Shown: positions 12,575 through 50,855 of the stretch, one piece after another
How positions within the stretch are numbered: position 1 is the stretch's first letter
How the letters are laid out: each line of letters starts with the position of its first letter
NCBI GenBank assembly: GCA_964530085.1
Contig: CAZGXX010000002.1
Coordinates: 212,725-276,724, forward strand
Direction of reading: 5' to 3'
DNA from: an uncultured Azospirillum sp.
Lineage (GTDB): Bacteria > Pseudomonadota > Alphaproteobacteria > Rickettsiales > UBA3002
DNA: 64,000 bases
The notes under the pieces: generated by a model
What the model was told of the DNA's origin: nothing
The model's database searches: none
The model's input: the letters and a program-made list of their open reading frames with translations, nothing else
Made by a program: the position numbers and the translations under genes

Positions 12575-13367
12575 AGACCAGCCGCTGCAACACATAAATC
12601 AGTACCAGCACCGAAGCGTAAACAATCATTTGTAGCGCGCTAGGCTGTGCCGTATAGCCCACCAGCGTATGCAAAATTTTTCCAAGAATACTGCTGTCCG
12701 ATACAATGGCCGAGCTGTTCCAGAGTGTCTGATTGAGCGCCGTCACCACCTGCGCCTGCTGTAGATAAAGCGCTGCTTGCGAAGCCATCCCCGCCGCGAG
12801 CAACGCAATCAGCCAGCTTGTCGCCTGAAAGAAATAGCGCACCGGAATTTTGAGCAGGCCCTGATACATCAGCGCAGCGATCATCACCCCCGCACCGAGC
12901 CCTAGCCCACCACCAATCAGCATCGTGTGATGGCTATCATTGCCGGAAGCCGCGATTCCATAAAGGAACAGCACCGTCTCAGCACCCTCGCGCAGCACCG
13001 CCGTGCCTACCACCAGCGCCAGCGCGAATAGGGGGCGATGCCCGGCAGCGACTTCTGCGCCGACAGTTTTCATTTCCGCAGCCATCTCGCGCCCATGCCG
13101 CGCCATCCAGACGATATGCCAGATCAACATCGCCACCGCGAGGCTCAGAATCGCTACATTGAGCATCTCCTGCCCCATGCCCTCAAGTGAACTGCTGATT
13201 GTATCCGTAAACAGTGCAAGAATACAGGCGCCGATGACACCAGCCAGAATCCCTGCCCCGACAAAGCGGTTGCGCCCCAGCACACCGCGCGTAGCAGCGA
13301 GCACAATGCCAACCACTAACCCAGCCTCGATGGTTTCACGAAAGACGATAATCAGGGATGCGAGCAT
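12540..13367 (-). CDS. FTR1-family high-affinity iron permease
   Basis: Two REXXE motifs (RETIEAG, REGAETV) in a 7-TM protein. Confidence 0.85.
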   Translation of the reverse strand: MLASLIIVFRETIEAGLVVGIVLAATRGVLGRNRFVGAGILAGVIGACILALFTDTISSSLEGMGQEMLNVAILSLAVAMLIWHIVWMARHGREMAAEMKTVGAEVAAGHRPLFALALVVGTAVLREGAETVLFLYGIAASGNDSHHTMLIGGGLGLGAGVMIAALMYQGLLKIPVRYFFQATSWLIALLAAGMASQAALYLQQAQVVTALNQTLWNSSAIVSDSSILGKILHTLVGYTAQPSALQMIVYASVLVLIYVLQRLVSKTPAPVVRGA

Positions 13368-13400
13368 GAGGAGCTTTCTGTTGAGGATGCGGCAGCGATA

Positions 13401-14150
13401 TTAGAAATACAGCTCATATTCAAGGAAGAGTCGCGCAGCGCCATCTTCTGCCGCGTCTGAGACACCAACGAGATATGCAGCCTCATACTTGACACCCGGC
13501 GCAAGTTCGCCATAGAGCGCTGGCCCCACAAAATGCGACTGCTCATTGAAGCTATGGTGATCCGACGCACGACCAAAATCTGACTGCCATTCCACACCAG
13601 GTTCCACATATTTGTTATAACGATAACGCGAGCCCCATAGCGCACTGCGCTCAAACCCATCCGCCGAGTCTGCGCCGACTTCATGCTCTGCGACAAGATT
13701 TAACCTATGGAGGAATTTGCCATAGCCTTTTTCAAGCAACAGCTTCGCTTCAACTACATCTGCATTACCGTCTTTCAGTGCATGCGCATAGGCGAGCTGA
13801 AGGCCGGAATCGAGCCAATATTCGCCTTGCTCAAAGAACTGGAACACGCTTGCCGCCTCGATCTCATCGAGCTTCAGGCTTTCGTCTGGCGCTTTGGTGA
13901 ATTTACCTTCCAGCTCCACTTTCATGCGATCTGTAAGACCATATTCTACTTCCATTTTATGCGCCTGATTATTGTCCTTTGTCCGATCGTCATCAAACGT
14001 AGTGGAACCTTGATATTCTAACTCCAACTCCCCCTTATGCACGTTCGGTGAAATAATGCGGCTGATGGCAAATGCCGGAGTAGAAATAAGCGCTAACGCT
14101 ATAGCAGCAGCACACACGCCGCGCAGCGAGCGGTTAAGCAAAAAGGACAT
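13401..14150 (-). CDS. predicted outer-membrane beta-barrel protein of the iron-uptake operon
   Basis: Signal peptide (AFA-IS), alternating amphipathic strands, C-terminal ...LEYELYF ending in an aromatic residue. Confidence 0.6.
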   Translation of the reverse strand: MSFLLNRSLRGVCAAAIALALISTPAFAISRIISPNVHKGELELEYQGSTTFDDDRTKDNNQAHKMEVEYGLTDRMKVELEGKFTKAPDESLKLDEIEAASVFQFFEQGEYWLDSGLQLAYAHALKDGNADVVEAKLLLEKGYGKFLHRLNLVAEHEVGADSADGFERSALWGSRYRYNKYVEPGVEWQSDFGRASDHHSFNEQSHFVGPALYGELAPGVKYEAAYLVGVSDAAEDGAARLFLEYELYF

Positions 14151-14176
14151 AGAGACTCCTGAAATAAAAATGGGCG

Positions 14177-14500
14177 TTATTTAACGATGAGGGTGCCTTT
14201 GGTGGTCGCCTCGTTGAATTCATCGAAGAATGCATAGCGACCAGGCTCTAGTGGACCAACGAAAACCACACCTTCGCCATTGCCTTTGATAATTTTTTCA
14301 CGGTTGAGGTCGTGGCTTTCAAACTCCGCCGGGGTTGGGTCCATATTCTTGATGACAATCTTCACCTTCTGTCCCGCCGAAATAGTCAGCTCCTTCGGCG
14401 AGAACTGATGGTTCTTCAGCGTCAGCACTTGCTCTTCTGCCGCCGCTGCGCCAGTCGCCACGAGCATCAGCAGCGATGCTATAATCAATTCTTTTCTCAT
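14177..14500 (-). CDS. cupredoxin-like periplasmic protein (FtrB-like)
   Basis: Signal peptide MRKELIIASLLMLVATGAAAA. Single cupredoxin-like domain (KIVIKNMDPTPAEFESHDL...GRYAFFDEF). GGAGGAAGTA Shine-Dalgarno before the ATG at 14500. Confidence 0.7.
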   Translation of the reverse strand: MRKELIIASLLMLVATGAAAAEEQVLTLKNHQFSPKELTISAGQKVKIVIKNMDPTPAEFESHDLNREKIIKGNGEGVVFVGPLEPGRYAFFDEFNEATTKGTLIVK

Positions 14501-14522
14501 TACTTCCTCCCTCTCATTTAAA

Positions 14523-14567
14523 TTGAGAATGATTTTCAACTGCAGCCAGTTAGTAATAATCATTCGC
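14523..14567 (-). promoter_or_regulatory. tandem Fur-box-like operators upstream of the cupredoxin/OMP/FTR1 operon
   Basis: ttgagaatgattttcaa (palindromic, 14523-14539) and gttagtaataatcattcgc (14549-14567). The second matches GATAATGATAATCATTATC at 14 of 19 positions. Confidence 0.5.
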
Positions 14568-14611
14568 AACAAGGTCAAGCGGAATTATAAAAGAAAATAA
14601 CGATCGTATAT

Positions 14612-15226
14612 TTACAATGATGAATGCTTGTTCCGCGTACGAGCAACTCGACCTTCTTGCACTGCTTCTTTCAGAAAAATATTCAGCTCCGGGCAATCCT
14701 TGCGCGCATCATAGCGCACGTCGTTCATAAACGCCGCAGGCTCACCAAGAGCACGAAGCAGCTCTCCGCGGGTTATGCGCACATCCAGCCCTGCATCGAC
14801 CAGCATCCATGCGATATCAAGCAACCGCTCCTTGCGCTGCTCTGGAGTCACTGGGTGCACAACATACCTGACAGGTTCAACATACCCATCCAGCAAAGGA
14901 TATGATGTTTCTTTAGATACGTTTTTCTTTGCAGCAACCAACTTCTCTGCCTCTGCAATATCCTTCTTCAGCGCGTCTTCTTTAGCCTCTTTCTTCACCA
15001 ATGGCTGCTTTGTATAGGTCGCTGCAAATGATTCTTTGCGATAGCCTGCTAATACTTCCACAAACAGCATTGGCCCATCGCGGGCTATATCCGGCGCCAC
15101 ATGATAAAGCGTTTTACCATGATGAAAATAATCATACAGCGTTTGGTAATCACCAGCATACGCCGCATCGTGCACCGCCTTAGGTAAACGATGTGCTTTT
15201 TTCAATTGTTCATTTTTGTCCGTCAT
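14612..15226 (-). CDS. hypothetical protein (~204 aa) with weak ankyrin-like segments
   Basis: AT-richer ORF. KAVHDAAYAGDYQTLYDYFHHG and RLLDIAWMLVDAGLDV resemble ankyrin helices. The start at 15226 has a GGAGAG SD. No signal peptide and a basic C-terminus. Confidence 0.55.
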   Translation of the reverse strand: MTDKNEQLKKAHRLPKAVHDAAYAGDYQTLYDYFHHGKTLYHVAPDIARDGPMLFVEVLAGYRKESFAATYTKQPLVKKEAKEDALKKDIAEAEKLVAAKKNVSKETSYPLLDGYVEPVRYVVHPVTPEQRKERLLDIAWMLVDAGLDVRITRGELLRALGEPAAFMNDVRYDARKDCPELNIFLKEAVQEGRVARTRNKHSSL

Positions 15227-15244
15227 AACACTCTCCATGCGGCA

Positions 15245-15290
15245 GCTATACCCTACTCAGCCACATCTGTGCATGACAGTTTTATGACAA
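15245..15290 (-). promoter_or_regulatory. Pho-box-like direct repeat promoter (class II, 22-nt gap)
   Basis: Gene-strand reading: TTGTCAT-AAAA-CTGTCAT, 22 nt, TATAGC. The repeat matches the E. coli Pho box half-site consensus at every position except the first base (T for C). Confidence 0.55.
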
Positions 15291-16673: not shown

Positions 16674-18002
16674 CTAGCTTTTGCTTTTGGAAGAAGACGG
16701 CTTGCTGCTAGGTGCATTATGACCGCCGTGGTCGTGCACATCTGCCGAAGGGAACATGCCCTTACGATCTGTAAGCCCCGCATAATCATGGCCATGCGAA
16801 TGATTGCCTTTACACGTTGCACCCTTATCCAAAGTAATACCTGCAATTTTTGGCTTCATAGGATGACGGTCTTCATCCCGCACTTCAAAATGCAGGTGCC
16901 GCGCCATATTCTTGATGGTACTTGTATTCCCAATAATACCGATCTTCTGGCCTTGAAGCACTTCCGTGCCTTCTTGCGGAAACGCGCTACCATCTTTCAT
17001 GTGCATGTACGAGGTAAACGTGCCATCCGCATGAGCAATGATTACCGTATTCCCAGCCGTTCCAAACTTACCCGAAACAATAACAATCCCACTCGCGGCA
17101 GCCAGAACGTCGCCCACTGCAGCGATATCAGCCCCCTCGTGCCATTTGCTTGCGCCTTTAATGCCTGTGTTGCGTGGCCCTACTCCCGAACGAATACCAG
17201 CATTCATCGTAATAGGACTATGGAACTCTACTTTTTCTCCTTTGTGCGCCGCCATGTAATCCAAACGTTTTTGTTCGGCCTGATCGCTGACGCTGATTTT
17301 TCCTATTTTCCCTGCACCCTTAAAGGTCTTGTTTTTATCCGCTGGCGTAGATGGCGCCGTATTGGTTTGCGCATCATCGCCATCCACCCCTTTATCCAAA
17401 TTATTTCCAAAAATGAGAGCGATGAGCGCTGATAACAGGCTGCTAAAAACATCACCTAAAGAACCAAAAATCTTCTGGAAGAAATTTGGTTCATCTTTCG
17501 TTGATGCAGGAGTTTCTTCCTGATGCTCGCCTTCCTCATGCGTATTGGTTTGTGGTGCCGATTGTTGTTTGGTGGGTGCAGTAGACTGCTTCTTGCCTGT
17601 TGCTATATTCTTCACTTTGGTAAATGCGTTTTGCGCCCAATCAGGCATCCACTTACCAACTCCTTGCCCATCATAAGTGCCCTTTTTACCCCAAATAGTT
17701 TGTTGCTTATGGCCATAATCGATATGCAGCGCGCCTGTTGACTTAGCTCCGCGCATATAAACACCAAAACCAGTCGCACCAGACATTAGAAACTCTTCAA
17801 TCACACGCTGCTTCTGAGAATCTTTTAAATGTCCAATTCCATAATCAATCGCATCTCCGTGGAGATGGCGCGAGTCAGGCGCACCGCCAACCTCTTTGTT
17901 ATGTTCATGGTCGCGATCCGTACAGTTGACGCGCAAAACGATACCTTCGCTGCGAAGCTTATCCGCCACTTCTTTGAATTTTTGCTCTGCATCACGTTGC
18001 AT
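16674..18002 (-). CDS. two-domain peptidoglycan hydrolase: N-terminal M15 (LAS, DD/LD-peptidase-like) plus C-terminal M23 endopeptidase, no signal peptide
   Basis: M15 motifs: RDHEHNKEVGGAPDSRHLHGDAID and ALHID. M23 motifs: WHEGADIA, NTVIIAHADGTFTSYMHM, RHLHFEV. A hydrophobic helix sits in the low-complexity linker. The C-terminal tail is His-rich and basic. ATG at 18002 has an AAGGA SD. Confidence 0.8.
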   Translation of the reverse strand: MQRDAEQKFKEVADKLRSEGIVLRVNCTDRDHEHNKEVGGAPDSRHLHGDAIDYGIGHLKDSQKQRVIEEFLMSGATGFGVYMRGAKSTGALHIDYGHKQQTIWGKKGTYDGQGVGKWMPDWAQNAFTKVKNIATGKKQSTAPTKQQSAPQTNTHEEGEHQEETPASTKDEPNFFQKIFGSLGDVFSSLLSALIALIFGNNLDKGVDGDDAQTNTAPSTPADKNKTFKGAGKIGKISVSDQAEQKRLDYMAAHKGEKVEFHSPITMNAGIRSGVGPRNTGIKGASKWHEGADIAAVGDVLAAASGIVIVSGKFGTAGNTVIIAHADGTFTSYMHMKDGSAFPQEGTEVLQGQKIGIIGNTSTIKNMARHLHFEVRDEDRHPMKPKIAGITLDKGATCKGNHSHGHDYAGLTDRKGMFPSADVHDHGGHNAPSSKPSSSKSKS

Positions 18003-18022: not shown

Positions 18023-18056
18023 ACTATAGCTCAGAATTGTGACAGTATGATGACAA
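18023..18056 (-). promoter_or_regulatory. Pho-box-like direct repeat promoter (class I, 10-nt gap)
   Basis: Gene-strand reading: TTGTCAT-CATA-CTGTCAC-aattctgagc-TATAGT. The -10 ends 20 nt upstream of the ATG at 18002. Confidence 0.6.
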
Positions 18057-30347: not shown

Positions 30348-30381
30348 TTGTCATAAAACTGTCATAAAACTGGCGTATAGT
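30348..30381 (+). promoter_or_regulatory. Pho-box-like direct repeat promoter (class I, 10-nt gap), best copy
   Basis: TTGTCAT-AAAA-CTGTCAT-aaaactggcg-TATAGT. The 11-bp unit tgtcataaaac occurs twice in tandem. 48 nt upstream of the ATG at 30430. Confidence 0.65.
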
Positions 30382-30429: not shown

Positions 30430-30690
30430 ATGAAACGCTTTACCGTCCCGTGTGATTTTAATGGCGTAAAACAGCCATTCCACGTTTATATCGGCGAGCC
30501 GCACCCGAAGAAGCACCCGCTGCAATTCCAAGGCTGGTGGCTTTCGAGCGAGCGTGGCGGCAGCATCCCACAGGACGTGATGGACAGCTTCGAGAAGCTC
30601 TTCAAAATCAGTCAGGAGAACGAAGTTTCGTTCGAAGATCTCTGCGTCTACGCCCTCGGCGCCGCGCAGCAGGAACAGCAACAAGGTTAA
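30430..30690 (+). CDS. conserved hypothetical protein (86 aa)
   Basis: ORF with GGAG SD, first gene downstream of the best motif copy. No recognisable catalytic motif. Confidence 0.65.
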   Translation: MKRFTVPCDFNGVKQPFHVYIGEPHPKKHPLQFQGWWLSSERGGSIPQDVMDSFEKLFKISQENEVSFEDLCVYALGAAQQEQQQG

Positions 30691-30705
30691 CCCGCGGAAG
30701 CCCTC

Positions 30706-32877
30706 ATGGCGACGGAAATCACCCCCGATAGCGCAGATCTCCCCACGACCGATGATCTCGGTGCGCTGGAAGGAGCGCTTGCTCAGGCACGCGCCGAGCT
30801 TGGGGCAATGGTGGATGCTGCCTCGGCGGCCGACCAGCTAGCAGACGATTCCGCCGAAGAATATTCCTTACACGAGGTGCCCGGCATCGGCCGTTATGCC
30901 GTGATTCGCAAAACAGGCTGGAACCCACTGCTTAAGGTGATCCACACGCGGGCAGCGAATATCGATTTCTCTTCCAATATGTATCCGGGATTCGATGCGG
31001 TTATCGGCGAAAAATTTCCGAGCCCGTACTTGCTGGATCCGTTGGACGAGAAGTACGAATCTGCGACCTATTGCCACTTGCGCGACAACATCGCCGCCGT
31101 GCGCAACTTCCTTATGGAAACCTATTACGTCAACACCCCTTCGGGCATGACGCCAGAGAAAGCCAGACAATCCCTCGAAGAAATTGCCAAATTCGTTGGG
31201 GAAGGACTCGATAATAACTACCGTTTCCTCGGTCTCGTTCCGAACCATGATCCGAGCAAGCCGTTCATCTCGATCTCGGATGCTTCTGCCACCGGCGGAG
31301 CCGGCGCGCAGTATATCTACGAAAAAATCCTCGAAATGCAGCGCCACTCGAACTGGATGCGTCCGTTTGCCGCTGTTGCTGCCTTGTTTGGCGGAAAGAT
31401 GGCGCCAAACTGGATGCTGCCATCCGCGCACGAAACGGAATTCACGGACGTACTTGGCACCGATATTGTTGATACCCATGGCCAAGCGCCCAATGGCCCC
31501 TCTTCTAGCGAGCTTAAGGCCCAACTCGACAAGGTCAATGCACTTGAAGCGGCTCGTGCAAAAGCAATCGACCAACGCCTCCTCAGCGCCAGCGCGCAAG
31601 ATCTCGATGCACTGGGCAACTCGATGCTGCTTACCGCCTCGACCATGCAAGACGTCACCGCGCTTTCCGAGCCGGTACGCCGCGATGCAATCGAAATCGC
31701 CAAAGACATTCTGCGCAAACTCAGAGTCTCGCTGGGCAATATCAATATTCTCGATGGCCTGAAGCTGCCGCCAAACGACGATATCGAAGCCATCGGCGCG
31801 CTCAAGGGCGTTGCCATGGTCTATCAGCGTTTGCTGGCTTATGGGCGAAGTGTGAACGCAGGCATTATGCAAGACCCGGCAATTCTGGCGGCAACACGCG
31901 CCATTGGGCAAATCGGCTATCTCGCCAAGCTCGAAGGACTACGCATGGCGCGCATCGCAGGCAACGGCAAACTTGCGCAATCGCTAAGCGCCGACCTCGC
32001 ACGTGTGCCGGATGTTTATGCAACCGCCTCGGGCAAAACGTTTGCCAGCCTGCTCGACACGGTTGATCGTGGAATTGATACGATTCTCAACCGTTCGCAG
32101 GCGGTAAGCCTTGGCGGTGCACAGGTGGGGCATACCCCAGGGAAAGAGCTGGGAAGCAGCGTGAATGCCGCCCCAACCGCCGGCGTTTCACAGCAATTGG
32201 CAAGAACGACACAGGTCAACGTGACGCGACAAACGAACCAGCTACTGGCCAACGTCAATGCCAATCAACAAGCGCAAGTCGTGCGGGCGCAGCAGCAACC
32301 ATCGCTCCCCCCCGCACTGGGTGATACCAAAGGCAATATACCGCAGCCAGCACCACAGCAGCGCACGGCGGCTGGGCGCACCCTCCCACCCCAGCGCCAG
32401 AGCACATCTCGAAGCTCAACCAGCGCCAGCACGCCGTCGTCAAACAACCTGAACCCACAGCAGCAACAGGCGGGAGCGCGTAATAATAATATCCAGATGC
32501 AACAGCATCACCACGAGGAAGAAGAAGCGCGCGAGCGGCAGCTCAAGCTGCAGCAACAACAGGAAATGCAACGTATCGCCGCAGCAAAGAAAGCCGCCGC
32601 TCAGGCCGCCGTCAAGAAAATGGATCCGAATATGCTGAAAGGATTCCAGAATGCGACGAACACCAAAGGCCTCACCGGCCCCGCGGTCAACCCCGACCCC
32701 AATGCGAAGAATATGTATGGGCAGCGCCTCAAGGGAACGCCCGTTCAGCCTTCTCCAAAACCACCTATTAAGCCTGAAATGCGTTCACCTGAAAACGCAT
32801 CACAGCCAGTGGACGAGTTCAATAAGCCGCTCACTCCAACGACCAACATGCCTCGTGGCGGTGGCCGCGGGTTTTAA
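30706..32877 (+). CDS. large hypothetical protein (723 aa) with a Gln/Pro/Ser-rich disordered C-terminal third
   Basis: Long ORF with backbone-like composition. Acidic N-terminus, structured ~450-aa core, then a low-complexity region (QQQ..., HHHEEEE, PSPKPPIKP) ending in RGGGRGF. No signal peptide. Convergent with the T4SS island. Confidence 0.7.
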   Translation: MATEITPDSADLPTTDDLGALEGALAQARAELGAMVDAASAADQLADDSAEEYSLHEVPGIGRYAVIRKTGWNPLLKVIHTRAANIDFSSNMYPGFDAVIGEKFPSPYLLDPLDEKYESATYCHLRDNIAAVRNFLMETYYVNTPSGMTPEKARQSLEEIAKFVGEGLDNNYRFLGLVPNHDPSKPFISISDASATGGAGAQYIYEKILEMQRHSNWMRPFAAVAALFGGKMAPNWMLPSAHETEFTDVLGTDIVDTHGQAPNGPSSSELKAQLDKVNALEAARAKAIDQRLLSASAQDLDALGNSMLLTASTMQDVTALSEPVRRDAIEIAKDILRKLRVSLGNINILDGLKLPPNDDIEAIGALKGVAMVYQRLLAYGRSVNAGIMQDPAILAATRAIGQIGYLAKLEGLRMARIAGNGKLAQSLSADLARVPDVYATASGKTFASLLDTVDRGIDTILNRSQAVSLGGAQVGHTPGKELGSSVNAAPTAGVSQQLARTTQVNVTRQTNQLLANVNANQQAQVVRAQQQPSLPPALGDTKGNIPQPAPQQRTAAGRTLPPQRQSTSRSSTSASTPSSNNLNPQQQQAGARNNNIQMQQHHHEEEEARERQLKLQQQQEMQRIAAAKKAAAQAAVKKMDPNMLKGFQNATNTKGLTGPAVNPDPNAKNMYGQRLKGTPVQPSPKPPIKPEMRSPENASQPVDEFNKPLTPTTNMPRGGGRGF

Positions 32878-32892
32878 TTTACTGCGCGGCGC

Positions 32893-33090
32893 TTAGAGAG
32901 AAACGATTCTCGTAGAATCGTGTATCACTTGATTCTCAACCATATCCTTATTCACCGCACGCTTAGGCCCGCAGGGACTATTATCGATCCCCACACAAGG
33001 GCTTTGCTGGGGCCTTACGGTTTCATCCGCACAGGCGCTAAGCGTGGCCAATATTCCAAGCGCGACTAAAAGAGAAAATGTCTTTTTCAT
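32893..33090 (-). CDS. small lipoprotein, VirB7-like candidate
   Basis: Lipobox LSAC at residues 17-20 (MKKTFSLLVALGILATLSAC). 65 aa. AVNK resembles the P-[ILV]-N-K VirB7 motif. Last gene of the virB operon. Confidence 0.45.
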   Translation of the reverse strand: MKKTFSLLVALGILATLSACADETVRPQQSPCVGIDNSPCGPKRAVNKDMVENQVIHDSTRIVSL

Positions 33091-33095
33091 GTGAA

Positions 33096-34424
33096 CTACC
33101 TTCTTCCGCTATGACCACCGGCTTTAGGGTTAGCACCGCCGAGTAATCCCCCGCCACCGGATTTATTTCCTTCAAGCATCTGGCTAAGTTTACCCTGCGT
33201 GTCAAGCGCCACAAAAGCGTTCGATATCTCGCTCGAGATCCGCTCGACGACCGAGGTAAAGCGTTGCGCTAAATAAATGAGAATCAAGAAACTCAAAATA
33301 TCCACAATATTGATCGGAAACTCAGGACATGGCTTTGCATTTGCGCCGGATGAATTGGGCGACAATAAACACTCCATCGAGCCTTTCCAGGTCATTTCTG
33401 TACTGGCAACTTTGGTATTTCCATCAATATGGCGCCACATGGCGAGCTTGTTAGGTGATCCCTCCACGTTTTTGTACTCCTGCCAACAGAGCTCTGTGCC
33501 AAGCATATCGCGCGAAGCACTTTCAATCAGCACGAGGAAGAACGAAAGGAAGGTGAATAACAGAATAGGTTGAAGCGAGAGGTTCACAATCGCGTTGAGC
33601 CACCCCATGAACATCATTTTGGTTTTGTCGAACAACAGGAATACAAAGAAAATTGGCGCAAGACCGAGAATCAGCGCGCGCGCCACAAAAGTGACCGCAT
33701 AGACTTGCAAACATTTCAACACCAACTGAATAAACCCAATCATCGCAATGAGCATCAGCGCGCCCATGGTGAGCCCAAACGGACCTTCAAGCACCGAGCC
33801 CATAATTCCGATGATGGTATCTGGCTGAATAATAAACTCCGCTAGCCTATCGAGCGCATAGAAAGGTGTGGCACCTTGAGGCACGGGTATACCCGTGCCA
33901 ATCGCCTGCACTCCTCGAATCAAATCGTCCGTACCGTCCTGAAAAAAGCGGACGACATTGTCATTGAAAAACTCCCAACCGGTGGGAGAAATAAGCGTAA
34001 ATAGAATCCCCATTTTAATTAAACGCACCAATACTTGCTGGAAGTTCGGTTGCACGATGCCCATGGTGAAGCCGACCCCATATAACACCACCATGAGCGA
34101 CATCGCCCCCATAAGTGCATTTTGGTATTCGGTGCTGTTCGTAAAGGAAACAAAGAGCTTCTGCGTTGCGTCATTCACCGTTTGCACAATGAACTTATAG
34201 ATATCACTCATGATACCATCTTGCTGCGTGCTATTGGGATTATCAAACACCTCCGTCGCGCGCTCGCAGAACGTGGTGCATGTGTCGCCGGAGTTCGTGG
34301 AAGTACTGTTGGCGCTGTTACAGGTTGCAGCGAAAGCCCCCTGCGGTATTGCTACCAGCGCAGCCACCATCAGCAGGCAACAAGCCATTATCTGTAGAGT
34401 GAATTGACGCATCACGAACCTCAT
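33096..34424 (-). CDS. virB6: VirB6/TrbL-family T4SS inner-membrane protein, paralog 3
   Basis: 442 aa. Signal peptide plus 5-6 TM helices in the VirB6 arrangement. ATGA start/stop overlap with the upstream paralog. Confidence 0.7.
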   Translation of the reverse strand: MRFVMRQFTLQIMACCLLMVAALVAIPQGAFAATCNSANSTSTNSGDTCTTFCERATEVFDNPNSTQQDGIMSDIYKFIVQTVNDATQKLFVSFTNSTEYQNALMGAMSLMVVLYGVGFTMGIVQPNFQQVLVRLIKMGILFTLISPTGWEFFNDNVVRFFQDGTDDLIRGVQAIGTGIPVPQGATPFYALDRLAEFIIQPDTIIGIMGSVLEGPFGLTMGALMLIAMIGFIQLVLKCLQVYAVTFVARALILGLAPIFFVFLLFDKTKMMFMGWLNAIVNLSLQPILLFTFLSFFLVLIESASRDMLGTELCWQEYKNVEGSPNKLAMWRHIDGNTKVASTEMTWKGSMECLLSPNSSGANAKPCPEFPINIVDILSFLILIYLAQRFTSVVERISSEISNAFVALDTQGKLSQMLEGNKSGGGGLLGGANPKAGGHSGRR

Positions 34425-36073
34425 TTCTTTGCCGTCGGCGTTGGTGGCGGAGTTTTCGGCACCGCCGTACTAATTTCACCTAAATAATCATGTATGCCGG
34501 ATTTAAACGCGCCTGGGGCACGATTAATAAATTCCTTGTCCTTCGCAGTGCTTGTTACTCTTCCTGCTGCATCACGATCAACGAACTTCTCTGTAAGCGC
34601 TGCTTTTCCGCGTTCAAATGCCGTCGTGAATTTGGTCTCGATCGGTGAATTTGCCGTAAGCGCTGCCCCGGCAATCGATGAGCCAATCATACTCGACACG
34701 CTGCCTTGAACGCCCTTCAGACCCTCCGCAATCAAATAGGCCATCAAGAAAAGCTTGATGCTTTCCATAAATAAATCCGTCATCGCCTTTTTCTTGTCCT
34801 GGAATCCTGAAGAATTTACTTTTGTCACATCAAACGTAGGCGTACTCAGCATAGAACATGCATCCGACCCGCCACTCAAAAGCGGTTGACCCAAGCGCTG
34901 CAAGTATGGGTTCTCAAGCTGTTTCTTTAGATCTGCATCTGTGGATGTACCGCCCGATCCTTTAGATTTAGGATCCCCCGTAATATTCAGGCTACAAGGC
35001 TTTTTATTTTGCTGAAGCGCTTCCTTAAGGATTGGGGCATCAAAAAGCTTCTGCATTTTTGAATCTGGCGCAAACAACAATTTATCATACACCAATAACG
35101 CATACATGGCATACGCCGCGATGATGATTGGCAGCAGCAACCCTGCAAAAATCGCTTTCCACCATTTCTCAAAATAGTCCGATGTAGTTTTTAGCAGCAC
35201 CAATGGCAAAAATAACGGCGCCATAATTAGCATAAGGCACACAATCAGATAGCCATTCATGAAGGCAAGTGCGGTGCGGAATACCAGCATCAATATCGTC
35301 CATAGCACTCCAATCATCGCAAAGAAGACAGCGACACCAAGCGTACCCCCGAAGAAAAACCCACTCAACAAACCGAAAGTACTCGCAACTAAGATCATGT
35401 TTACAGGTTTTGTGCCATTGGGCCCAGTATTGCCAGTCCCGGTGGCGAAACCAAAAAGTTTGCCGAGCACGCAATCCATTTGTTTCCATATCTGGGGGGT
35501 ATTGGCGTCACCGTATTTATTGATGTCGCAATGAAAGGAACTGGAGTTCGGGCCGATCGCATTCGATACAATTTGCACCCCATCTGCCATAACGCCATAC
35601 GCCTTGGGCACAACATGATGGGGTATCAACTGCAACATGCCAATAACAAACGCAATTTTCACAACAAACGAGAATGCCTGCGGGCCAATTTCACGCTCTC
35701 CTTGCAGTACTTTTACGCCAAAAAAGACGATCGCCAAGGTGAGAAAAGCGTAAAATATAGGCTCCATAAAATGGATGAATTGCTCGCTGAAGCTCTCCGT
35801 ACTTTTTTCGATCGTAAAAATCAGGCATGGAATGATGTGCCCAAGCAGCACACCGCCCTTTGCCTCAGGAAGCGTTGAGCATGTCTGCTTGCCACCGTTG
35901 CCGTCTGATGTTTTTAGCTCACGCTCCGTTTGCGTGCCTTTGGGGTCATCATTTAACGCAGACGCGTCTTCGTTAGTTTGGTCAGTAGCCGCCCAAGCAT
36001 GCTGGCTCACAGCAAGCGGTTGCGCGAGATATACCAGCGCGGCGAGTATGAGGAGTGCTAGAAATTGCCTCAT
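34421..36073 (-). CDS. virB6: VirB6/TrbL-family T4SS inner-membrane protein, paralog 2
   Basis: 550 aa. Signal peptide, polytopic core, hydrophilic C-terminal extension. ATGA overlaps at both ends. Confidence 0.75.
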   Translation of the reverse strand: MRQFLALLILAALVYLAQPLAVSQHAWAATDQTNEDASALNDDPKGTQTERELKTSDGNGGKQTCSTLPEAKGGVLLGHIIPCLIFTIEKSTESFSEQFIHFMEPIFYAFLTLAIVFFGVKVLQGEREIGPQAFSFVVKIAFVIGMLQLIPHHVVPKAYGVMADGVQIVSNAIGPNSSSFHCDINKYGDANTPQIWKQMDCVLGKLFGFATGTGNTGPNGTKPVNMILVASTFGLLSGFFFGGTLGVAVFFAMIGVLWTILMLVFRTALAFMNGYLIVCLMLIMAPLFLPLVLLKTTSDYFEKWWKAIFAGLLLPIIIAAYAMYALLVYDKLLFAPDSKMQKLFDAPILKEALQQNKKPCSLNITGDPKSKGSGGTSTDADLKKQLENPYLQRLGQPLLSGGSDACSMLSTPTFDVTKVNSSGFQDKKKAMTDLFMESIKLFLMAYLIAEGLKGVQGSVSSMIGSSIAGAALTANSPIETKFTTAFERGKAALTEKFVDRDAAGRVTSTAKDKEFINRAPGAFKSGIHDYLGEISTAVPKTPPPTPTAKK

Positions 36074-37791
36074 GGCGACTTCCTTCCAGTAACCATACTT
36101 TCCATTTTCGAGCGTATACCCTGATGCCCCGGCGTGCCACCGGCGACTGCTCCAAGATTCGGCATCTGGCCAAAGTCACCCACAAGGTCATACGCCACCA
36201 TCGGTATGACTTTAAGCAGGCCGTTCATAACAAACACCACCACCGCTGCAAAAATCACCGCGGCCATGGCCTCTTTTGAAACCTGCTCGGCTTTATCCTG
36301 CGCCTGATCGCCAGCCGGAACACTAGTATCAATCACCACCGCCGGATTGCGCACATCGGCCACCAGTTTCCAGTTGATACTCGTTTTCCAGATACGGAGT
36401 GGATAGCTTTGCGCGCATTGCTGTTTAAGGTCTTGGTCATCTTTAGAAAGCTTGCTATCGTCTGTACTCATTAATGCCTTCGTACATTTACTATTTTCTA
36501 GCCCGCTGATAGCATCGCCGGCCACCGTTCCATCGGTTGGTGTCGGGTCCTTGGTATCGCCCTTTATCTGTCCGAGATCAAACGGCACTTCACCTACCAA
36601 CCTGACGATATCGTCAGGATTCATATTCTGAGCTGCCTGACAAGGTGTTTGGGGCTGCGGGCAAAGACATGATGAAGGATTAGATTTGTCGCGGTCGCAA
36701 GTAAGATAATAATTCAGGCTGAAATCGCTCTGGCGCGATGCCTCCCCCGCGATACGGTACATCACTGAATAATCGCCCGAGAACGTGGCGAGATCCACCG
36801 CCGAAATACTGAGCACCACAAACACCAGAATAATAACTGGCTGCAAGGCAAAGGAAATGACCAGCTTCAGCCATTTATCAAAATAAGCTTTGGTGGCCTG
36901 AAACAGCAGCATGGGAATAAACAAGGGCCCCGCCATCATCAGCACTGCAATACCGAGATATCCGGCAATATAAATAAACAGCGCCTTAATAATAAGGCTG
37001 ATGATACCCCAGATAAAAATCAACCCGATGATGGCAAGAACAAAGCCCATGACCGATGAACTATAGGCACTAAAAAAGAAGTATAACATACCGCGCGAGA
37101 GGCCTTGATCTGCGTTTTTTAACTTCTCGTTATAAGCTTTCCCTTGCCCCAGTGCCGTTTGTGAAATCCCGCCTAAATTCTCAACTTTGATACCAATCAC
37201 CGTGTCGAGAATACAATCCATGGCCAGCCACGGCCCAGAAATATACTTCGCCGAGGTCGCGCTCGACTTCACATCATTCATATTCTTCAGGCAGTTTATC
37301 TTGCTAAAATCACTGCCTTGCGTGTTATCAGCCGTACCATTCTCCGGTACAAAACTGACAACCGACTGCGCTACTGAATCCATCATCGTAATGGTCTGAT
37401 GGTATAAATAGTCCGTATTCATGGCAAACGTGCTCACCGCCGCGATTTTGATCAGCAGCATAATAGAGTCGCGCCCGACCTTCTCGAGCATACCGAACGC
37501 TGCCATAATCCCAAAAACAATCACCGCCAGCGTTGTTGTTCCGGCAATAGCCTTCTTCACAAGCGGGTAGAAACCTGTGTTGCTATCAAAAAACTGACTT
37601 GTTGCTGAATCGAGCGTCTCGCGAACGCAGCCTACGATATGATTGGTGAGGCCCACATACCCACTTTGCATTTTCACACGATTACCAGCGGCATCGGTCT
37701 GGTAACTGCTGCAGGTAGTGCTGATGGCAAGCTGCGCACGCGAACTGCTTGCCGCGAGAGAAACCCCAAGCATCACGACAATAACAAGCAT
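36070..37791 (-). CDS. virB6: VirB6/TrbL-family T4SS inner-membrane protein, paralog 1
   Basis: ~573 aa from the ATG at 37791 (signal peptide MLVIVVMLGVSLAASSS). The ORF-track GTG at 37854 lies inside virB4. Polytopic core plus a Cys/Pro-rich C-terminal extension. Confidence 0.75.
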   Translation of the reverse strand: MLVIVVMLGVSLAASSSRAQLAISTTCSSYQTDAAGNRVKMQSGYVGLTNHIVGCVRETLDSATSQFFDSNTGFYPLVKKAIAGTTTLAVIVFGIMAAFGMLEKVGRDSIMLLIKIAAVSTFAMNTDYLYHQTITMMDSVAQSVVSFVPENGTADNTQGSDFSKINCLKNMNDVKSSATSAKYISGPWLAMDCILDTVIGIKVENLGGISQTALGQGKAYNEKLKNADQGLSRGMLYFFFSAYSSSVMGFVLAIIGLIFIWGIISLIIKALFIYIAGYLGIAVLMMAGPLFIPMLLFQATKAYFDKWLKLVISFALQPVIILVFVVLSISAVDLATFSGDYSVMYRIAGEASRQSDFSLNYYLTCDRDKSNPSSCLCPQPQTPCQAAQNMNPDDIVRLVGEVPFDLGQIKGDTKDPTPTDGTVAGDAISGLENSKCTKALMSTDDSKLSKDDQDLKQQCAQSYPLRIWKTSINWKLVADVRNPAVVIDTSVPAGDQAQDKAEQVSKEAMAAVIFAAVVVFVMNGLLKVIPMVAYDLVGDFGQMPNLGAVAGGTPGHQGIRSKMESMVTGRKSP

Positions 37792-37814
37792 TATTCTGAT
37801 GAGGCTTGATCGAC

Positions 37815-40211
37815 TCACAGTGCACTCACTCTTTTGGTAAATATTGGTAACCACGCATTCACATCATCGCCCACTTCGGCGCGGATTTCGTCGAGCAGGC
37901 CGACGGTTTCCGCACGGCCAGAGAGTACATGAACAATATCCGTCATTCCGCTCAGATCAATCCGCGCGACCACCACGTCCTTACCTTGCTTCACCAGAAA
38001 ATAACGCGACCCCGGATCTGTATTCTTGAGGAGATTAAACTCACGCTCTGAAAGCATAAATGCCTTACGATAAGGCTCGGTAGCCTTAGGGTTCGGCAGG
38101 AAAATTTGCGTTGCCGTCTGCTGGATCAACGTATCGGAAATCGAGCTTCCAACAGCATCTTCCACGCTTTGCGTAGCGAACACCACCATGCCGTTCAGCT
38201 TCCGCAGGGTCTTCAGCCAGTCTTTAATTTTGACAGCAAAAACTTTGTTATCCACCAGCGCCCATGCCTCATCGAGGATGATAATAGTCGGCGTGCCATC
38301 AAGCGAAATCTGGATGCGATGGAACAGGTAAAGTAGCACCGGAATCAGGCAGACTTTGTTCGCCAGAACATCCCCCATCTCAAAGCCAAAAACGTTGCTG
38401 CTTTTAAAATTGATTTTATCTTCTACCTGGTCAAAAAGCTGCGCATAACGCCCATTACTGTGCCATTGCTTAAGACGCGTCGCGAGGCTGCCTGCCACCT
38501 CCATCCCAAAAAACGGCGCGATATTGTGTAGCACTCGGTCTTCTTTACGCAGCTTAAAGCAGCCATCAATCGCCCGGATGACAGTTTCGTTTTCCTCAGC
38601 TGTCAGCGGCTCATCGTGGATCGACACAAGCGAACTCAACCACTCCGCAATAAAAGTACGGTTTTCCATCGTGTCGTCGAGCTGCAATGGATTGAAATAA
38701 CACTGCCGGCCTGGGTCGATATGCGCATATTGCCCATTCAATGCTCGCACAAAAATCTCAGCACCGCGGTCTTTATCGAACATGAACATGCGGCAATTAA
38801 ACTTCAGCGCCTGCGCTGCGAGGAAGTTCATCAACACCGTTTTACCCGCACCCGTTGGCCCGATAATGGTGGTATGCCCAACGTCCCGCGCATGGAAATT
38901 AAAGAAGAACGGCGTACCGGAGGTAGTATCAAACACCGTCACGGCATTTCCCCAATGATTTCCATCAATACGGCCAACCGGATAGTTATGCATCGCCGCG
39001 AACCCGGCAATATTCAGCGTATTGATTTTCGCTGCACGACCAATATATTCGAAATTACCCGGCAACTGCGCCCAATAGCATGCTTCAAGCACCAGCTTTT
39101 CGCGCACCGGATTGACCCCCACATTCACTAGCTCAGCAATCACCATCGCAATTGAACTCTCGAGCGCCACGAGGTTATCCTCGATACAGAGCACCGTCAT
39201 ATGATGCTCACCAAACGCGATATGACCCGACATCGTCATATCAAGTGCTTCAGAAATCTCTTGCATCTGACTAACGGCAACATCACCACTTTGCAACATG
39301 CGACGCTGCTGCAACTGCATCGACTGCATGTTGTTTCCACGATTAGCAAACCGATAACTCTGGCTAATCACAAACTCAAATGGCAATTGCAAAAATGCAT
39401 CCATTATACCTGCGGCCGTGTGTGGTGAATATTCCTTGATACTCACTATACCCGCATAACGCGTTCCAGTGGGCGAACGCACCTCAATTGCACGTGAACC
39501 GAAATAGAGACGGTTCACTGGCAAATAATGGGCAATATCGATCGTAGGAACGAGCATTTTTTGTGTATCCCCAGCATTCACCAAACGCCCCAAGAACTCT
39601 AGCGGTTCAGATGCCGGCCCTGACTCAGTCATCTTCGTCGTCAGCACCGCAATGCCATAATCTTTAAACGTCGCAAGCACACGATAGACGGCTTCTTTTA
39701 GCTCTTTGTGCATCTCTTGCAGCTGAATTGATTCAGCGCCTTTGTTGGTCTTTTTTTCAATTTTATTGAAAATATTCTCGAGCTTCGCTGCCCCCTTTTC
39801 ATCCTGCTTACGAATGATTGTGATATATAGCTCATTTACAAAAGTAGAGCGCGCATGATGCTTTTTTTTCCAACTATCATCGACATATTTGGCAAAGCCA
39901 GTAGGCAGCGTTCCACCAGGATACGCGCTCTGACGACGACGTATCGTATGAAAATAAAGACTAAAGGTCCCCTCTGCCATACTTTTATACAGCGAGTTGC
40001 GAACCATTTTCTTCATGTCCACGACGTCATCATCTGCTGTTTCAAATGAGAACCCATCAATCTTGAGGATCTGCATCAATTCACCATTTTTGGTGATGAT
40101 GGTATCTTTGTCCCAATGATGCTCATAAGGAATAAAGTCGGCCATTGAAATTTCGCGAGCTGCGTATTTCGCTTTTGATGTCTTTCTGGGTGTCAATGGC
40201 TTCAGCAACAT
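37815..40211 (-). CDS. virB4: T4SS ATPase VirB4
   Basis: 798 aa. Walker A GPTGAGKT, Walker B IIILDEAW, N-terminal FIPY...IITKNGELM region typical of VirB4/CagE/TrbE. Confidence 0.92.
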   Translation of the reverse strand: MLLKPLTPRKTSKAKYAAREISMADFIPYEHHWDKDTIITKNGELMQILKIDGFSFETADDDVVDMKKMVRNSLYKSMAEGTFSLYFHTIRRRQSAYPGGTLPTGFAKYVDDSWKKKHHARSTFVNELYITIIRKQDEKGAAKLENIFNKIEKKTNKGAESIQLQEMHKELKEAVYRVLATFKDYGIAVLTTKMTESGPASEPLEFLGRLVNAGDTQKMLVPTIDIAHYLPVNRLYFGSRAIEVRSPTGTRYAGIVSIKEYSPHTAAGIMDAFLQLPFEFVISQSYRFANRGNNMQSMQLQQRRMLQSGDVAVSQMQEISEALDMTMSGHIAFGEHHMTVLCIEDNLVALESSIAMVIAELVNVGVNPVREKLVLEACYWAQLPGNFEYIGRAAKINTLNIAGFAAMHNYPVGRIDGNHWGNAVTVFDTTSGTPFFFNFHARDVGHTTIIGPTGAGKTVLMNFLAAQALKFNCRMFMFDKDRGAEIFVRALNGQYAHIDPGRQCYFNPLQLDDTMENRTFIAEWLSSLVSIHDEPLTAEENETVIRAIDGCFKLRKEDRVLHNIAPFFGMEVAGSLATRLKQWHSNGRYAQLFDQVEDKINFKSSNVFGFEMGDVLANKVCLIPVLLYLFHRIQISLDGTPTIIILDEAWALVDNKVFAVKIKDWLKTLRKLNGMVVFATQSVEDAVGSSISDTLIQQTATQIFLPNPKATEPYRKAFMLSEREFNLLKNTDPGSRYFLVKQGKDVVVARIDLSGMTDIVHVLSGRAETVGLLDEIRAEVGDDVNAWLPIFTKRVSAL

Positions 40212-40214
40212 CGT

Positions 40215-40511
40215 TTAGAACACATCGTACGAATTAGTGTGATGATGAAATGCGCGATTCCAACTTTGGAAGCCAGTTTTCATCCGTAGCATCCAAAGCT
40301 CTACCGCGCGCGGCTCCTTCTGGCACAATAAATAGCCAAAAATATGCACTACCCCACCAAACGGCATTGCCAAAAAAGACTTGGTGTTGATGAACATGAT
40401 AGTAGTCAGCATCGCGTTGACCACGAAATACATGTAACTGACGCCCATAATCATGGGCGGACGGGCAAGCCCCTGAAATAATGGATCCGCACGTAAACGG
40501 CCACCAGCCAT
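40215..40511 (-). CDS. virB3: T4SS protein VirB3
   Basis: DPLFQGLARPPMIMGV motif followed by two TM helices. The ATG at 40511 is preferred over the TTG at 40535. Confidence 0.85.
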   Translation of the reverse strand: MAGGRLRADPLFQGLARPPMIMGVSYMYFVVNAMLTTIMFINTKSFLAMPFGGVVHIFGYLLCQKEPRAVELWMLRMKTGFQSWNRAFHHHTNSYDVF

Positions 40512-40686
40512 ATCCACCCCTGTCTTTTTATGCAACCTACTGTATAGTATGAATTACCAAGCAGAAGCAGGCTGCACGTACAATTACCAATAACTGATTA
40601 TAACAGCTATTTACTAAAATTGTGTAAAGATCTGGCGCTTTTTTCACATGAATATGAAAATAGATGCGCGAGGTGTGACACCCTCA

Positions 40687-44412: not shown

Positions 44413-44458
44413 TTGTCACACAATCTTCACAATTGTTAACAAAAAACTGTGCTAGGGT
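44413..44458 (+). promoter_or_regulatory. Pho-box-like direct repeat promoter (class II, 22-nt gap)
   Basis: TTGTCAC-ACAA-TCTTCAC, 22 nt, TAGGGT (44453-44458). Confidence 0.45.
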
Positions 44459-44502: not shown

Positions 44503-45489
44503 ATGGTTCTGGAGCAGACATTAGCGAGACTCGATGAGATCACCGGATCGCACAATAAAAATCTAAGCTCAAAAAACCCAGAGGTTTTAGCAAAAACAAT
44601 AGATAGTCTTAAAGAATTCTTTACGCCTCTTTCTAAAGAACAGCGCGTTGAAATTTTCTATAACGCATTAAAACATCATGAGGGCCACAAAGAGTACCGA
44701 GGTTACGACGTTTTCAGTGGTTATGTTGGCGCACAAGTCTTTGAACCACTTAAAGCCATTATCAAAAATGGTGATCTCAAACTCTGGCAAGCCGCTACTG
44801 GTGGCCTAACCACCGAAGAAAAAATGAGGGTGTTGGGCGCACATTACAACAATAGTGGCGATTCTCTGTGGCATGTTCTGGCAAAAGCAGAAAACCCAGA
44901 ACTGTTTAAATATTCCCTACGGAACCTAACGGTTGGCGAGAAAATAACAGCCTTTTCGAATTATAATTTTCAACACGATGATGAATGCACCCAGAATCGG
45001 AACGAAGTCGGCAATACCGTTTGGCATGTAGTGGTAAAAAACAAAAATCCTGAATTCCAAAAGATTGCATTTAAGGGATTATCCCCAGAAGAAAAGCTTT
45101 CCGTTTTAAGACTCGAACGCAAATACAGCCAATTGGGTGAGCGTGTGGGCAGCGTAGTCGTCCAAGAAAACAAGACGCTCGTATTTGCGGGGCTAACGCG
45201 CATACAGCGCATGCTGACAAAATCCTCTAAAGAAAACAGTCTATCCAAAGTAAAAGAAGACGGAAGCACAGTAAGAATTTCTTTTTCAAACAATGGCTCG
45301 CGTATTCTGGAGCATCATTCTCCTGGAAACAAAGATGAGTTGGAGGATAGGACTGTTCAATATCTAAAACGCGAAAATGGCACCCGCAAATATACCGGGC
45401 CAGAGGGTACTATGGAATGGAGCAAGGTTATCCGCCAGCACGAAGACGGAAGCGCCATTTACGAAAGAGAAGAACCTTTCCGCCGCTAA
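44503..45489 (+). CDS. hypothetical protein (328 aa) with degenerate ankyrin-like repeats
   Basis: AT-richer ORF. AAGGAG SD 6 nt before the ATG at 44503. Internal repeats GDSLWHVLAKAENPELFKYSLRNLTVGEKITAF and GNTVWHVVVKNKNPEFQKIAFKGLSPEEKLSVL resemble the ankyrin G-x-T-x-L-H core. No signal peptide. Ends ...EEPFRR. Confidence 0.6.
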   Translation: MVLEQTLARLDEITGSHNKNLSSKNPEVLAKTIDSLKEFFTPLSKEQRVEIFYNALKHHEGHKEYRGYDVFSGYVGAQVFEPLKAIIKNGDLKLWQAATGGLTTEEKMRVLGAHYNNSGDSLWHVLAKAENPELFKYSLRNLTVGEKITAFSNYNFQHDDECTQNRNEVGNTVWHVVVKNKNPEFQKIAFKGLSPEEKLSVLRLERKYSQLGERVGSVVVQENKTLVFAGLTRIQRMLTKSSKENSLSKVKEDGSTVRISFSNNGSRILEHHSPGNKDELEDRTVQYLKRENGTRKYTGPEGTMEWSKVIRQHEDGSAIYEREEPFRR

Positions 45490-50760: not shown

Positions 50761-50806
50761 AATGTCACAAAACTGTCATACAACAGAGGGTGTTTTTGAT
50801 GTATAG
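50761..50806 (+). promoter_or_regulatory. Pho-box-like direct repeat promoter (class II, 22-nt gap)
   Basis: ATGTCAC-AAAA-CTGTCAT, 22 nt, TATAGT (50801-50806), 49 nt upstream of the ATG at 50856. Confidence 0.5.
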
Positions 50807-50855
50807 TAAGCACAGATGAGAGATCAACTCTCACGCAATAAAAAAAGGCAAACCT

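Follow-up and report, generated by a model that had tools for sequence, protein, structure and literature searches.

Why should a promoter of the kind that serves the phosphate regulator PhoB stand in front of genes with no recognizable part in phosphate metabolism? The question is raised by a stretch of 64,000 nucleotides (nt) of contig CAZGXX010000002.1, hereafter the window, from an uncultured Azospirillum sp. that the GTDB places in the Rickettsiales. At positions 30348-30381 (+ strand), the window carries an 18-bp tandem repeat, or box, of sequence TTGTCATAAAACTGTCAT (30348-30365), a 10-nt spacer (aaaactggcg) and the -10 hexamer TATAGT (30376-30381), 49 nt upstream of an open reading frame (ORF) of 86 amino acids (aa). 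This ORF encodes a DUF2610 protein (30430-30690; Pfam PF11020, E = 1e-37) and opens an operon (30430-32877, +) that continues with p723, an orphan of 723 aa (30706-32877). Eight copies of the repeat are found in the window, every one of them intergenic and oriented toward the adjacent gene. The answer that we favor, with a probability of roughly 0.7, is that the eight are sigma-70 promoters that depend on an activator, a PhoB-type regulator, and are placed on lineage-specific genes that are not phosphate (Pho) genes and whose conserved core is linked to a type IV secretion system (T4SS). It is very probable that the boxes are real sites for an activator of the OmpR/PhoB family.

The presence of eight gene-facing Pho-box-type repeats, reported by an initial annotation made from the sequence, is confirmed. 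All of the sites quoted there exist, and the sole correction concerns the one upstream of an S11 peptidase gene, whose box starts at 50762 and not at 50761. The degenerate repeat YTGTMAY-N4-YYKTMAY matches the window exactly seven times, and the corresponding count for 100 dinucleotide-preserving shuffles is 0.00; the site at 50762 (ATGTCAC...) is the eighth and falls outside the pattern. With a matrix built from the eight sites themselves, a circular test, the sites score 23.9-30.9 and all other positions at most 15.8. To avoid this circularity, a 19-nt clade matrix was trained solely on orthologous DUF2610 promoters from other genomes. Seven of the sites score 16.3-30.7 with it, where 0.12 matches above 14 are expected, and the site at 2470 is borderline at 10.2; this site and the one at 44413 rank lowest of the eight. 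The matrix scans of the window gave no comparable score elsewhere, neither within genes nor before annotated housekeeping genes, the latter as the initial annotation had it. A weaker ninth site, proposed at 20283-20239, is not supported: it stays below 9 on the clade matrix, reaches 10.8 on the E. coli matrix described below, and is kept only among relatives too close to inform. Beyond the box and the -10 the eight sites show no similarity, their flanks being unrelated; the boxes at 30348 and 15290 are identical 18-mers.

The promoters fall into two classes by the distance from box to -10. In class I this distance is exactly 10 nt at all four window sites. The promoter at 30348 scores 30.7 with the clade matrix and 25.0 with the E. 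coli matrix (scores are given in this order below). The second member, at 18023-18056 (-; TTGTCATCATACTGTCAC-N10-TATAGT; 27.9 and 22.1), is kept in the close relatives L081-L084 and precedes the gene of a 442-aa predicted peptidoglycan hydrolase that combines a Peptidase_M15_3 with a Peptidase_M23 domain and lacks a signal peptide (16674-18002, -). The third, at 6472-6505 (-; TTGTCATGAAACCGTCAT-N10-TATAGT with a TGc extended -10; 24.9 and 20.5), faces a histidine-rich, hydrophilic orphan of 397 aa without a Pfam match (5252-6445, -). The fourth, at 5161-5194 (-; TTGTAACGAAACTGTAAC-N10-TAGGGT with a TGg extended -10; 18.7 and 20.3), faces an orphan of 490 aa (3665-5137, -) that had been called an EF-hand protein; its single EF-hand-like loop, DADHNGHIGMEE, is canonical by eye, but the Pfam match (EF-hand_1, E = 0.0013) lies below the cut-off. 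The spacer core WTTCTG that had been noticed in class I sites is present, and in part it is the TGn of the extended -10. In the DUF2610 promoter itself the spacer extends the repeat (30359-30376, +; CTGTCAT-AAAA-CTGgcgT), giving two and a half Pho-box units that run into the -10, and this spacer, AAAACTGGCG, is retained in the relative L001.

Class II had been described as having exactly 22 nt between box and -10. The class is real and recurs across the clade, but its spacing there varies from 21 to 23 nt. In the window, the promoter at 50762-50807 (+; ATGTCACAAAACTGTCAT-N22-TATAGT; box 50762-50779, -10 50802-50807; 24.0 and 24.8) precedes the gene of a 288-aa protein of the Peptidase_S11/beta-lactamase fold, without a signal peptide and with a histidine-rich tail (50856-51722, +). 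The promoter at 15245-15290 (-; 25.8 and 23.9), which carries TTGTCATAAAACTGTCAT again, faces an orphan of 208 aa (14612-15238, -). A probable member at 44413-44458 (+; TTGTCACACAATCTTCAC-N22-TAGGGT with a TGc extended -10) scores 16.3 and 15.4, the latter near the null maximum, and precedes an orphan of 328 aa with internal repeats (44503-45489, +). No Pfam family matches this protein, ankyrin repeats included, which leaves its earlier label "ankyrin-like" without support. It likely starts at the ATG at 44503, after an AAGGAGA motif; the GTG at 44449 is disfavored because it would overlap the -10. The weakest of the eight promoters, at 2470-2515 (+; TTGTAACAAAATCTTCAC; 10.2 and 15.0), has an orphan of 132 aa as its target (2543-2941, +).

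The assignment of the -10 is ambiguous in two of these class II promoters. Those at 15290 and 2470 have in common the 11-mer GAGTAGGGTAT (15255-15245, -, and 2500-2512, +), 14 nt past the box, which creates overlapping candidates: TAGGGT at 17 nt in both (15255-15250 in the former), and at 22 nt TATAGC (15250-15245) in the former or TATTCT in the latter. At 15290 the 22-nt assignment is mildly favored, because the relative L081 retains TATAGC while TAGGGT is mutated to TAGGCT. The shared 11-mer may be an extra recognition element or a remnant of promoter duplication.

How close these boxes come to genuine PhoB sites was assessed with a second matrix, made from 59 PhoB-bound E. coli sequences tabulated in a chromatin immunoprecipitation sequencing (ChIP-seq) study (PMC10294691). 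The window's top eight positions are exactly the eight sites, six of them at 20.3-25.0, with 44413 at 15.4 and 2470 at 15.0; the null maximum has a mean of 14.3 and a top value of 18.2. The boxes at 30348 and 15290 share their core, TGTCATAAAACTGTCAT, with the E. coli pstS Pho box, and on both counts the description of the sites as Pho-box-type holds. As in the PhoB promoters of E. coli (pstS, phoA, phoB), S. meliloti and Caulobacter, the window sites consist of two CTGTCAT-class 7-bp direct repeats (TGTCA-class heptamers) in 11-bp phase around a 4-bp A/T-rich spacer, with no -35, and the variant half-sites of the window (TGTAAC, TTTCAC-like, CGTCAT) are all found among the E. coli ChIP-seq sites. 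At the four class I sites the box stands in for the -35 and stops 10 bp short of a sigma-70 -10, again as in those promoters. The window differs from them in its targets, which are orphans and signal-peptide-less peptidoglycan enzymes and no phosphate genes, and in the density of the promoters, at 8 per 64 kb. It also differs in spacing, since about half of the clade's sites use 21-23 nt, which to our knowledge is not a classical PhoB arrangement.

A control for the meaning of the class I architecture came from public metagenome contigs, which were scanned for YTGTCAY-N4-YTGTCAY-N10-TATAGT. Among the 80 contigs sampled, 76 matches had a downstream ORF, and 45 of these ORFs (at least 59%) were of Pho type: 23 PstS-like, 18 PhoA-like and 4 PhoB-like. 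NCBIfam identified representatives as PstS, PstS-family, alkaline phosphatase and PhoB (TIGR02154); the remaining ORFs include a porin and proteins with twin-arginine (TAT) signals. Judged from these neighbors, a box followed at 10 nt by TATAGT is elsewhere diagnostic of the PhoB regulon. Because the pattern in these metagenomes mostly marks genes of the Pho type, the window would appear to use a PhoB-type promoter on non-Pho genes.

The pairing of box and gene is not confined to this genome. A DUF2610 protein search of one-genome-per-species contigs returned 80 loci, all from uncultured metagenome-assembled genomes (MAGs), of which 78 were usable. A box was recognizable upstream of DUF2610 in 62 of the 78, over a range of 72-98% in protein identity and 0.40-0.66 in genomic G+C content (GC). 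The bases G-T-C-A of the first half-site and G-T-.-A of the second are invariant in these promoters. The 10-nt spacing that the initial annotation had given for class I recurs exactly, as a TAnnnT 10 nt past the box, in 52 of the 62, and spacing was not used when the boxes were chosen. In the more distant relatives the consensus is CTGTCATAATTnGGTAAY-A-N9-TAnnnT. When the clade matrix was run on 1.16 Mb of related DNA, it gave 45 further matches, 31 of which lie in the 10% of the sequence that is intergenic; 25 of the matches have a same-strand ORF within 200 nt. At 42 sites other than DUF2610 promoters, the TAnnnT offsets form two peaks, one of 10 sites at 10 nt and one of 19 sites at 21-23 nt, and the class II promoters frequently have a TGn extended -10. 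A consensus scan for promoters and terminators around the targets was uninformative and found no canonical -35.

The lineage in which this occurs bears on what the promoters might be for. The window has a GC of 55% and encodes FzlA, an NDUFS4-like protein, the F0 ATP synthase operon, leuBCD, asd and other housekeeping genes, together with a virB3-virB4-virB6-virB6-virB6 cluster in the arrangement typical of the Rickettsiales rvh T4SS. The genomes with DUF2610 loci are mostly labeled Rickettsiales or Alphaproteobacteria bacterium, some Azospirillum or Pseudomonadota. Among them are UBA6178, UBA6189, UBA6149 and RS372, which are Mitibacteraceae, a basal, apparently free-living family of the Rickettsiales with a GC of 42-58% and genomes of 1.6-2.2 Mb (Schoen et al. 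2022). The window groups with this family. Basal free-living Rickettsiales have the rvh system, and known effectors were not found in them (Schoen et al. 2022; Lehman et al. 2024); a bacteria-killing rvh T4SS has been proposed from counts of M23 and peptidoglycan-binding (PGBD) domains (Schoen et al. 2022). The literature searched held no precedent for control of T4SS effectors by PhoB or a Pho box.

In the window, the rvh-type fragment (32893-40535, -) is convergent with p723 and comprises virB3 (40215-40535), virB4 (37815-40211) and three virB6 paralogues (33096-37854), all identified by Pfam. Past the last virB6 lies an ORF of 65 aa (32893-33090, -) with a lipobox and the lipoprotein signal ...LATLSAC; it is conserved in 29 relatives and is a candidate VirB7-like component of the system. 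The gene order NDUFS4-like-[box]-DUF2610-p723, followed by the convergent lipoprotein-virB6x3-virB4-virB3, is conserved in the closer subclade, and among the 52 loci with at least 6 kb of downstream sequence, virB6 is adjacent in 21 and p723 in 39. The initial annotation had spoken of a co-resident T4SS; the tie is in fact stronger, with the box-driven DUF2610-p723 operon a conserved neighbor of virB6, virB4 and virB3. The T4SS genes have a GC of 0.47-0.49, low like that of the box-driven genes, and two relatives have a box upstream of virB3 itself (L069, with 10-nt spacing, and L036, with two tandem boxes). The virB3 operon is mostly preceded by another conserved element, TTTACnCAATTTTAGTAAAT (40609-40628, - in the window). 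Because the virB3-virB4 operon carries this different element, the genes of the T4SS machine seem to be under control separate from that of the box-driven genes. In fuller form the element reads TTTAC/TTAAC-n-CAATTTTAGTAAAT and then tCTTGGTAtT; it also occurs in L007, L014, L017, L022, L023, L025 and L036 and loosely resembles a CtrA box (TTAA-N7-TTAG).

The box-driven genes also have properties in common. Within the window they mostly encode, as claimed, orphans, none with a signal peptide, and there is no housekeeping gene among them. Their mean GC is 0.49 against 0.566 in the other 56 ORFs of the window (p = 3e-4), and their products are more hydrophilic (grand average of hydropathy -0.57 against -0.07, p = 7e-5); no box-driven window target has an N-terminal hydrophobic segment. 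In the relatives, nine of ten box-driven proteins have no Pfam match. The exception, which recurs in five genomes, is a Peptidase_C26/class-I glutamine amidotransferase-like protein of 318-352 aa without a signal peptide; among the class II targets of the more distant subclade it turns up repeatedly, ~4 kb upstream of DUF2610 in L043, L048, L053, L054 and L060. Cell-wall-degrading domains without a Sec signal are limited to the M15_3+M23 and S11 proteins, 2 of about 10 targets. The former has three homologues only, at 74-80% identity, whose promoters are near-identical and hence uninformative as a footprint, and the latter has no close relative in the metagenome_contigs set.

For the conserved DUF2610-p723 pair, no PDB sequence matches were found, and AlphaFold2 models (mean predicted local distance difference test scores 87.6 and 75.2, respectively) gave no Foldseek match at E < 0.3. 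The p723 family has ~120 members, all hypothetical and without a Pfam match. Its proteins combine a conserved, mostly helical N-terminal part of 470 aa with a low-complexity tail rich in Q, P and S, and the extreme C-terminus, ...GGRGF, is kept family-wide. To judge from this retention, ...GGRGF could be a recognition tag.

Taken together, we would picture the system as follows. The Pho-box-type tandem repeat, with TGTCA-class heptamers in 11-bp phase and an A/T-rich spacer, would stand in for the -35, and a dimer of a PhoB-type response regulator of the OmpR family would bind it and recruit RNA polymerase. Two geometries would be used: the classical PhoB one, in which the box ends 10 nt before the -10, and one in which it ends 21-23 nt before it, about one helical turn farther upstream and often with a TGn extended -10. 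A Mitibacteraceae-type lineage would have placed this promoter on rapidly evolving, lineage-specific genes for non-exported proteins rather than on genes for phosphate acquisition, and the conserved core of the set would be the DUF2610-p723 operon beside the rvh genes. It is more doubtful whether the targets include cargo of the T4SS, in which case the M15+M23 and S11 enzymes, lacking signal peptides, would be candidates for antibacterial effectors; we put the odds somewhat against it. More speculative still, and in our view unlikely, is the larger scenario in which an ancestral Pho box was co-opted in the Mitibacteraceae as the master switch of rvh cargo, such that phosphate scarcity would lead to the injection of a diversifying arsenal, peptidoglycan hydrolases included, into neighboring bacteria.

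A number of observations count against reading the boxes as PhoB-type promoters of T4SS-linked genes, those on the regulator among them. Annotation of about 65 window ORFs with Pfam and NCBIfam revealed no response regulator, and tblastn searches of the window and ~1.2 Mb of related DNA with E. coli PhoB, PhoU and PstB as queries gave receiver domains only, with no sign of an OmpR-family regulator, of PhoU or of PstB. The four class II sites, at 21-23 nt, depart from the classical 10-bp PhoB geometry, and neither a third half-site nor a -35 was seen in class II spacers. No recognizable Pho gene is among the eight window targets. The signs expected of cargo are also missing from the box-driven proteins: they show no C-terminal positive-charge bias, an all-against-all comparison of the last 120 residues found no XVIPCD-like or other shared domain (a shared N-terminal domain was not found either), and no immunity-like gene adjoins the two peptidoglycan enzymes. 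The more distant subclade keeps NDUFS4-[box]-DUF2610 without an adjoining T4SS cluster, and outside the clade, in Methylobacter and Spirulina, DUF2610 is tied to defense-type operons of NACHT/STAND proteins rather than to a T4SS.

Some of these points would sit well with an ordinary though large phosphate-starvation regulon, in which a PhoB orthologue drives lineage-specific stress proteins unrelated to secretion and the adjacency of the T4SS is coincidental. The motif and the class I geometry are indistinguishable from PhoB sites, the freshwater Mitibacteraceae MAGs UBA6149, UBA6178 and UBA6189 have pstSCAB and phoU (tabulated by Schoen et al. 2022), the targets show no signature of a secretion signal, and DUF2610 keeps its box also where no T4SS adjoins. 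We nevertheless consider such a regulon improbable: a phosphate-related function is found neither in the 8 window targets nor in the 10 annotated targets of relatives, the targets share their low GC with the T4SS genes, virB3 has a box in two genomes, and the signal-peptide-less peptidoglycan hydrolases have no obvious cytoplasmic role. Another way to account for the content of the regulon, which resembles no Pho regulon, is a PhoB paralogue or other OmpR-family regulator that retained TGTCA specificity but responds to some other signal, for instance contact with prey or a host, envelope stress or the cell cycle. The candidates would be the OmpR- or KdpE-annotated proteins of the Mitibacteraceae, or CenR. 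One OmpR-annotated and 1-2 KdpE-annotated regulators are listed per genome, with phoB absent from the families shown (Schoen et al. 2022); other Rickettsiales are annotated with both PhoR-PhoB and EnvZ-OmpR. The class II geometry, atypical of PhoB, would fit such a regulator, and so would the precedent of OmpR-family regulators other than PhoB that control T4SS genes, namely PmrA in Legionella and Coxiella, BatR in Bartonella and VirG in Agrobacterium. The reverse complement of the box does contain TGA-N8-TGA, the published CenR motif, but this is too short and low in information to discriminate, the conserved bases here are GTCA, and the activating CenR sites of Rhodobacter lie upstream of the -35 and not in its place. 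Among characterized proteobacterial OmpR-family regulators the 18-mer belongs to PhoB, whose recognition helix in E. coli includes VEDRTVDVHIRRLR, and in the unbiased metagenome sample at least 59% of the instances of this pattern lead into Pho genes. A regulator of this other kind therefore strikes us as unlikely, and we lean slightly toward the PhoB orthologue itself; low phosphate as the trigger is close to an even bet, tilting marginally against.

Two further readings would dispense with an OmpR-family activator altogether. The repeat could be the -35 element of a promoter for an alternative sigma factor of the extracytoplasmic function (ECF) type, as a conserved bipartite motif at a fixed distance from a downstream hexamer, with no canonical -35, might suggest. 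The distances from half-site to -10 are 10-11 or 21-22 nt, unlike the 16-18 nt of sigma promoters, and the reading was rejected on this spacing; the -10 is moreover sigma-70-like (TATAGT) and often TGn-extended, and both the tandem 11-bp repeat and its two discrete spacings, one helical turn apart, point to activator sites. We regard it as very improbable. The identity of the 18-mers at 30348 and 15290 could likewise suggest that a small mobile or repeated element was copied, or that the matches arose by chance. Here the flanks are unrelated beyond the box and -10, the shuffles gave no match, the orthologous position is kept across about 60 species-level genomes, and matches are strongly intergenic and oriented; by the shuffles, the conservation and the placement, this reading is effectively refuted, with a likelihood close to nil.

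Activator-dependent promoters of a PhoB type on T4SS-linked genes would be of a known kind in mechanism, and comparison with other T4SS regulons shows where they would be new. In Legionella pneumophila and Coxiella burnetii, the OmpR-family regulators PmrA and CpxR act through a tandem repeat upstream of the -10 of fast-evolving effector genes, and the motif has been used for effector discovery. The window resembles these Dot/Icm regulons in that many unrelated genes of a T4SS-bearing genome have one type of site directly upstream of their -10 (8 sites in the window and 31 intergenic sites in relatives). The repeats differ, however: PmrA repeats are of the TTAAT class (cTTAATatT), those here of the TGTCAT class, so the boxes do not qualify as PmrA sites. 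The secretion systems differ as well (IVB Dot/Icm against IVA rvh, in another branch of the phylum), and the targets here are putative cargo known from sequence. The analogy with PmrA is thus one of function and not of membership. Closer in phylogeny, VirA/VirG of Agrobacterium and BatR/BatS of Bartonella are cases of alphaproteobacterial OmpR-family control of a VirB-type T4SS and its substrates, and virG of Agrobacterium is itself inducible by phosphate starvation. The vir box, TNCAATTGAAAY, and the BatR sites differ in sequence from the box found here, which moreover stands on putative cargo genes and not on the machine, the virB3 operon mostly having its other element. With the X-Tfe proteins of Xanthomonas, the window shares proteins that lack a Sec signal but have domains for degrading peptidoglycan (M23 and others), and the association with a VirB-type T4SS; it differs in having no XVIPCD-like shared C-terminal domain and no evident adjacent gene for an immunity lipoprotein. 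We know of no common promoter motif for X-Tfes.

What appears to be new, on the sequence evidence, is a canonical Pho box on T4SS-linked non-Pho genes, the conserved second class of spacing and the value of the motif as a possible handle for effectors. The box could serve to pick out candidate rvh cargo in a group where effectors have not been identified, as the PmrA motif has served in Legionella and Coxiella; across about 60 species-level genomes it flags an operon set against T4SS genes and dozens of orphan genes without signal peptides. It would also be a case of regulatory rewiring, in which a promoter architecture identical to that of pstS is attached to a wholly different set of genes. 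If the cargo proposal is true, the motif would yield the first genome-wide effector catalogue for the ancestral Rickettsiales T4SS, and nutrient limitation would be tied to contact-dependent killing at the base of a lineage that went on to become obligately intracellular.

Several neighboring genes and other contexts deserve mention. In genomes outside the clade, namely Methylobacter and others (L086-L088) and Spirulina (L089), a small DUF2610 gene (64% identical) comes last, behind one for a giant NACHT/STAND NTPase (2191 aa), and the islands around these genes hold integrases, PIN toxins and restriction genes. Cyanobacterial papers record DUF2610 fused to orthocaspases. By analogy, this hints that DUF2610 is an adaptor-type domain of conflict systems. 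In the window, the 208-aa orphan is followed on the same strand (12540-14578, -) by genes for an exported cupredoxin-like protein, an exported 249-aa protein and an EfeU/Ftr1 iron permease, with which it is possibly co-transcribed; the cupredoxin-like and 249-aa genes have a low GC (0.475-0.50). The box at 15290 may therefore also drive an iron-uptake operon. The lowest GC of the window (0.424) belongs to another exported orphan, of 146 aa (48605-49045, +), which begins 23 nt after uvrA. Because it has no box and there is no space for a promoter after uvrA, it is apparently an accessory gene that is read through from a housekeeping gene. Finally, four unrelated low-GC metagenome contigs (L107, L156, L163 and L167) carry, directly after a perfect Pho box-N10-TATAGT, a conserved basic peptide of ~46 aa (...NQRRKQLxRQHHK...SRRQSHF...), which may be a small, unannotated protein of the Pho regulon.

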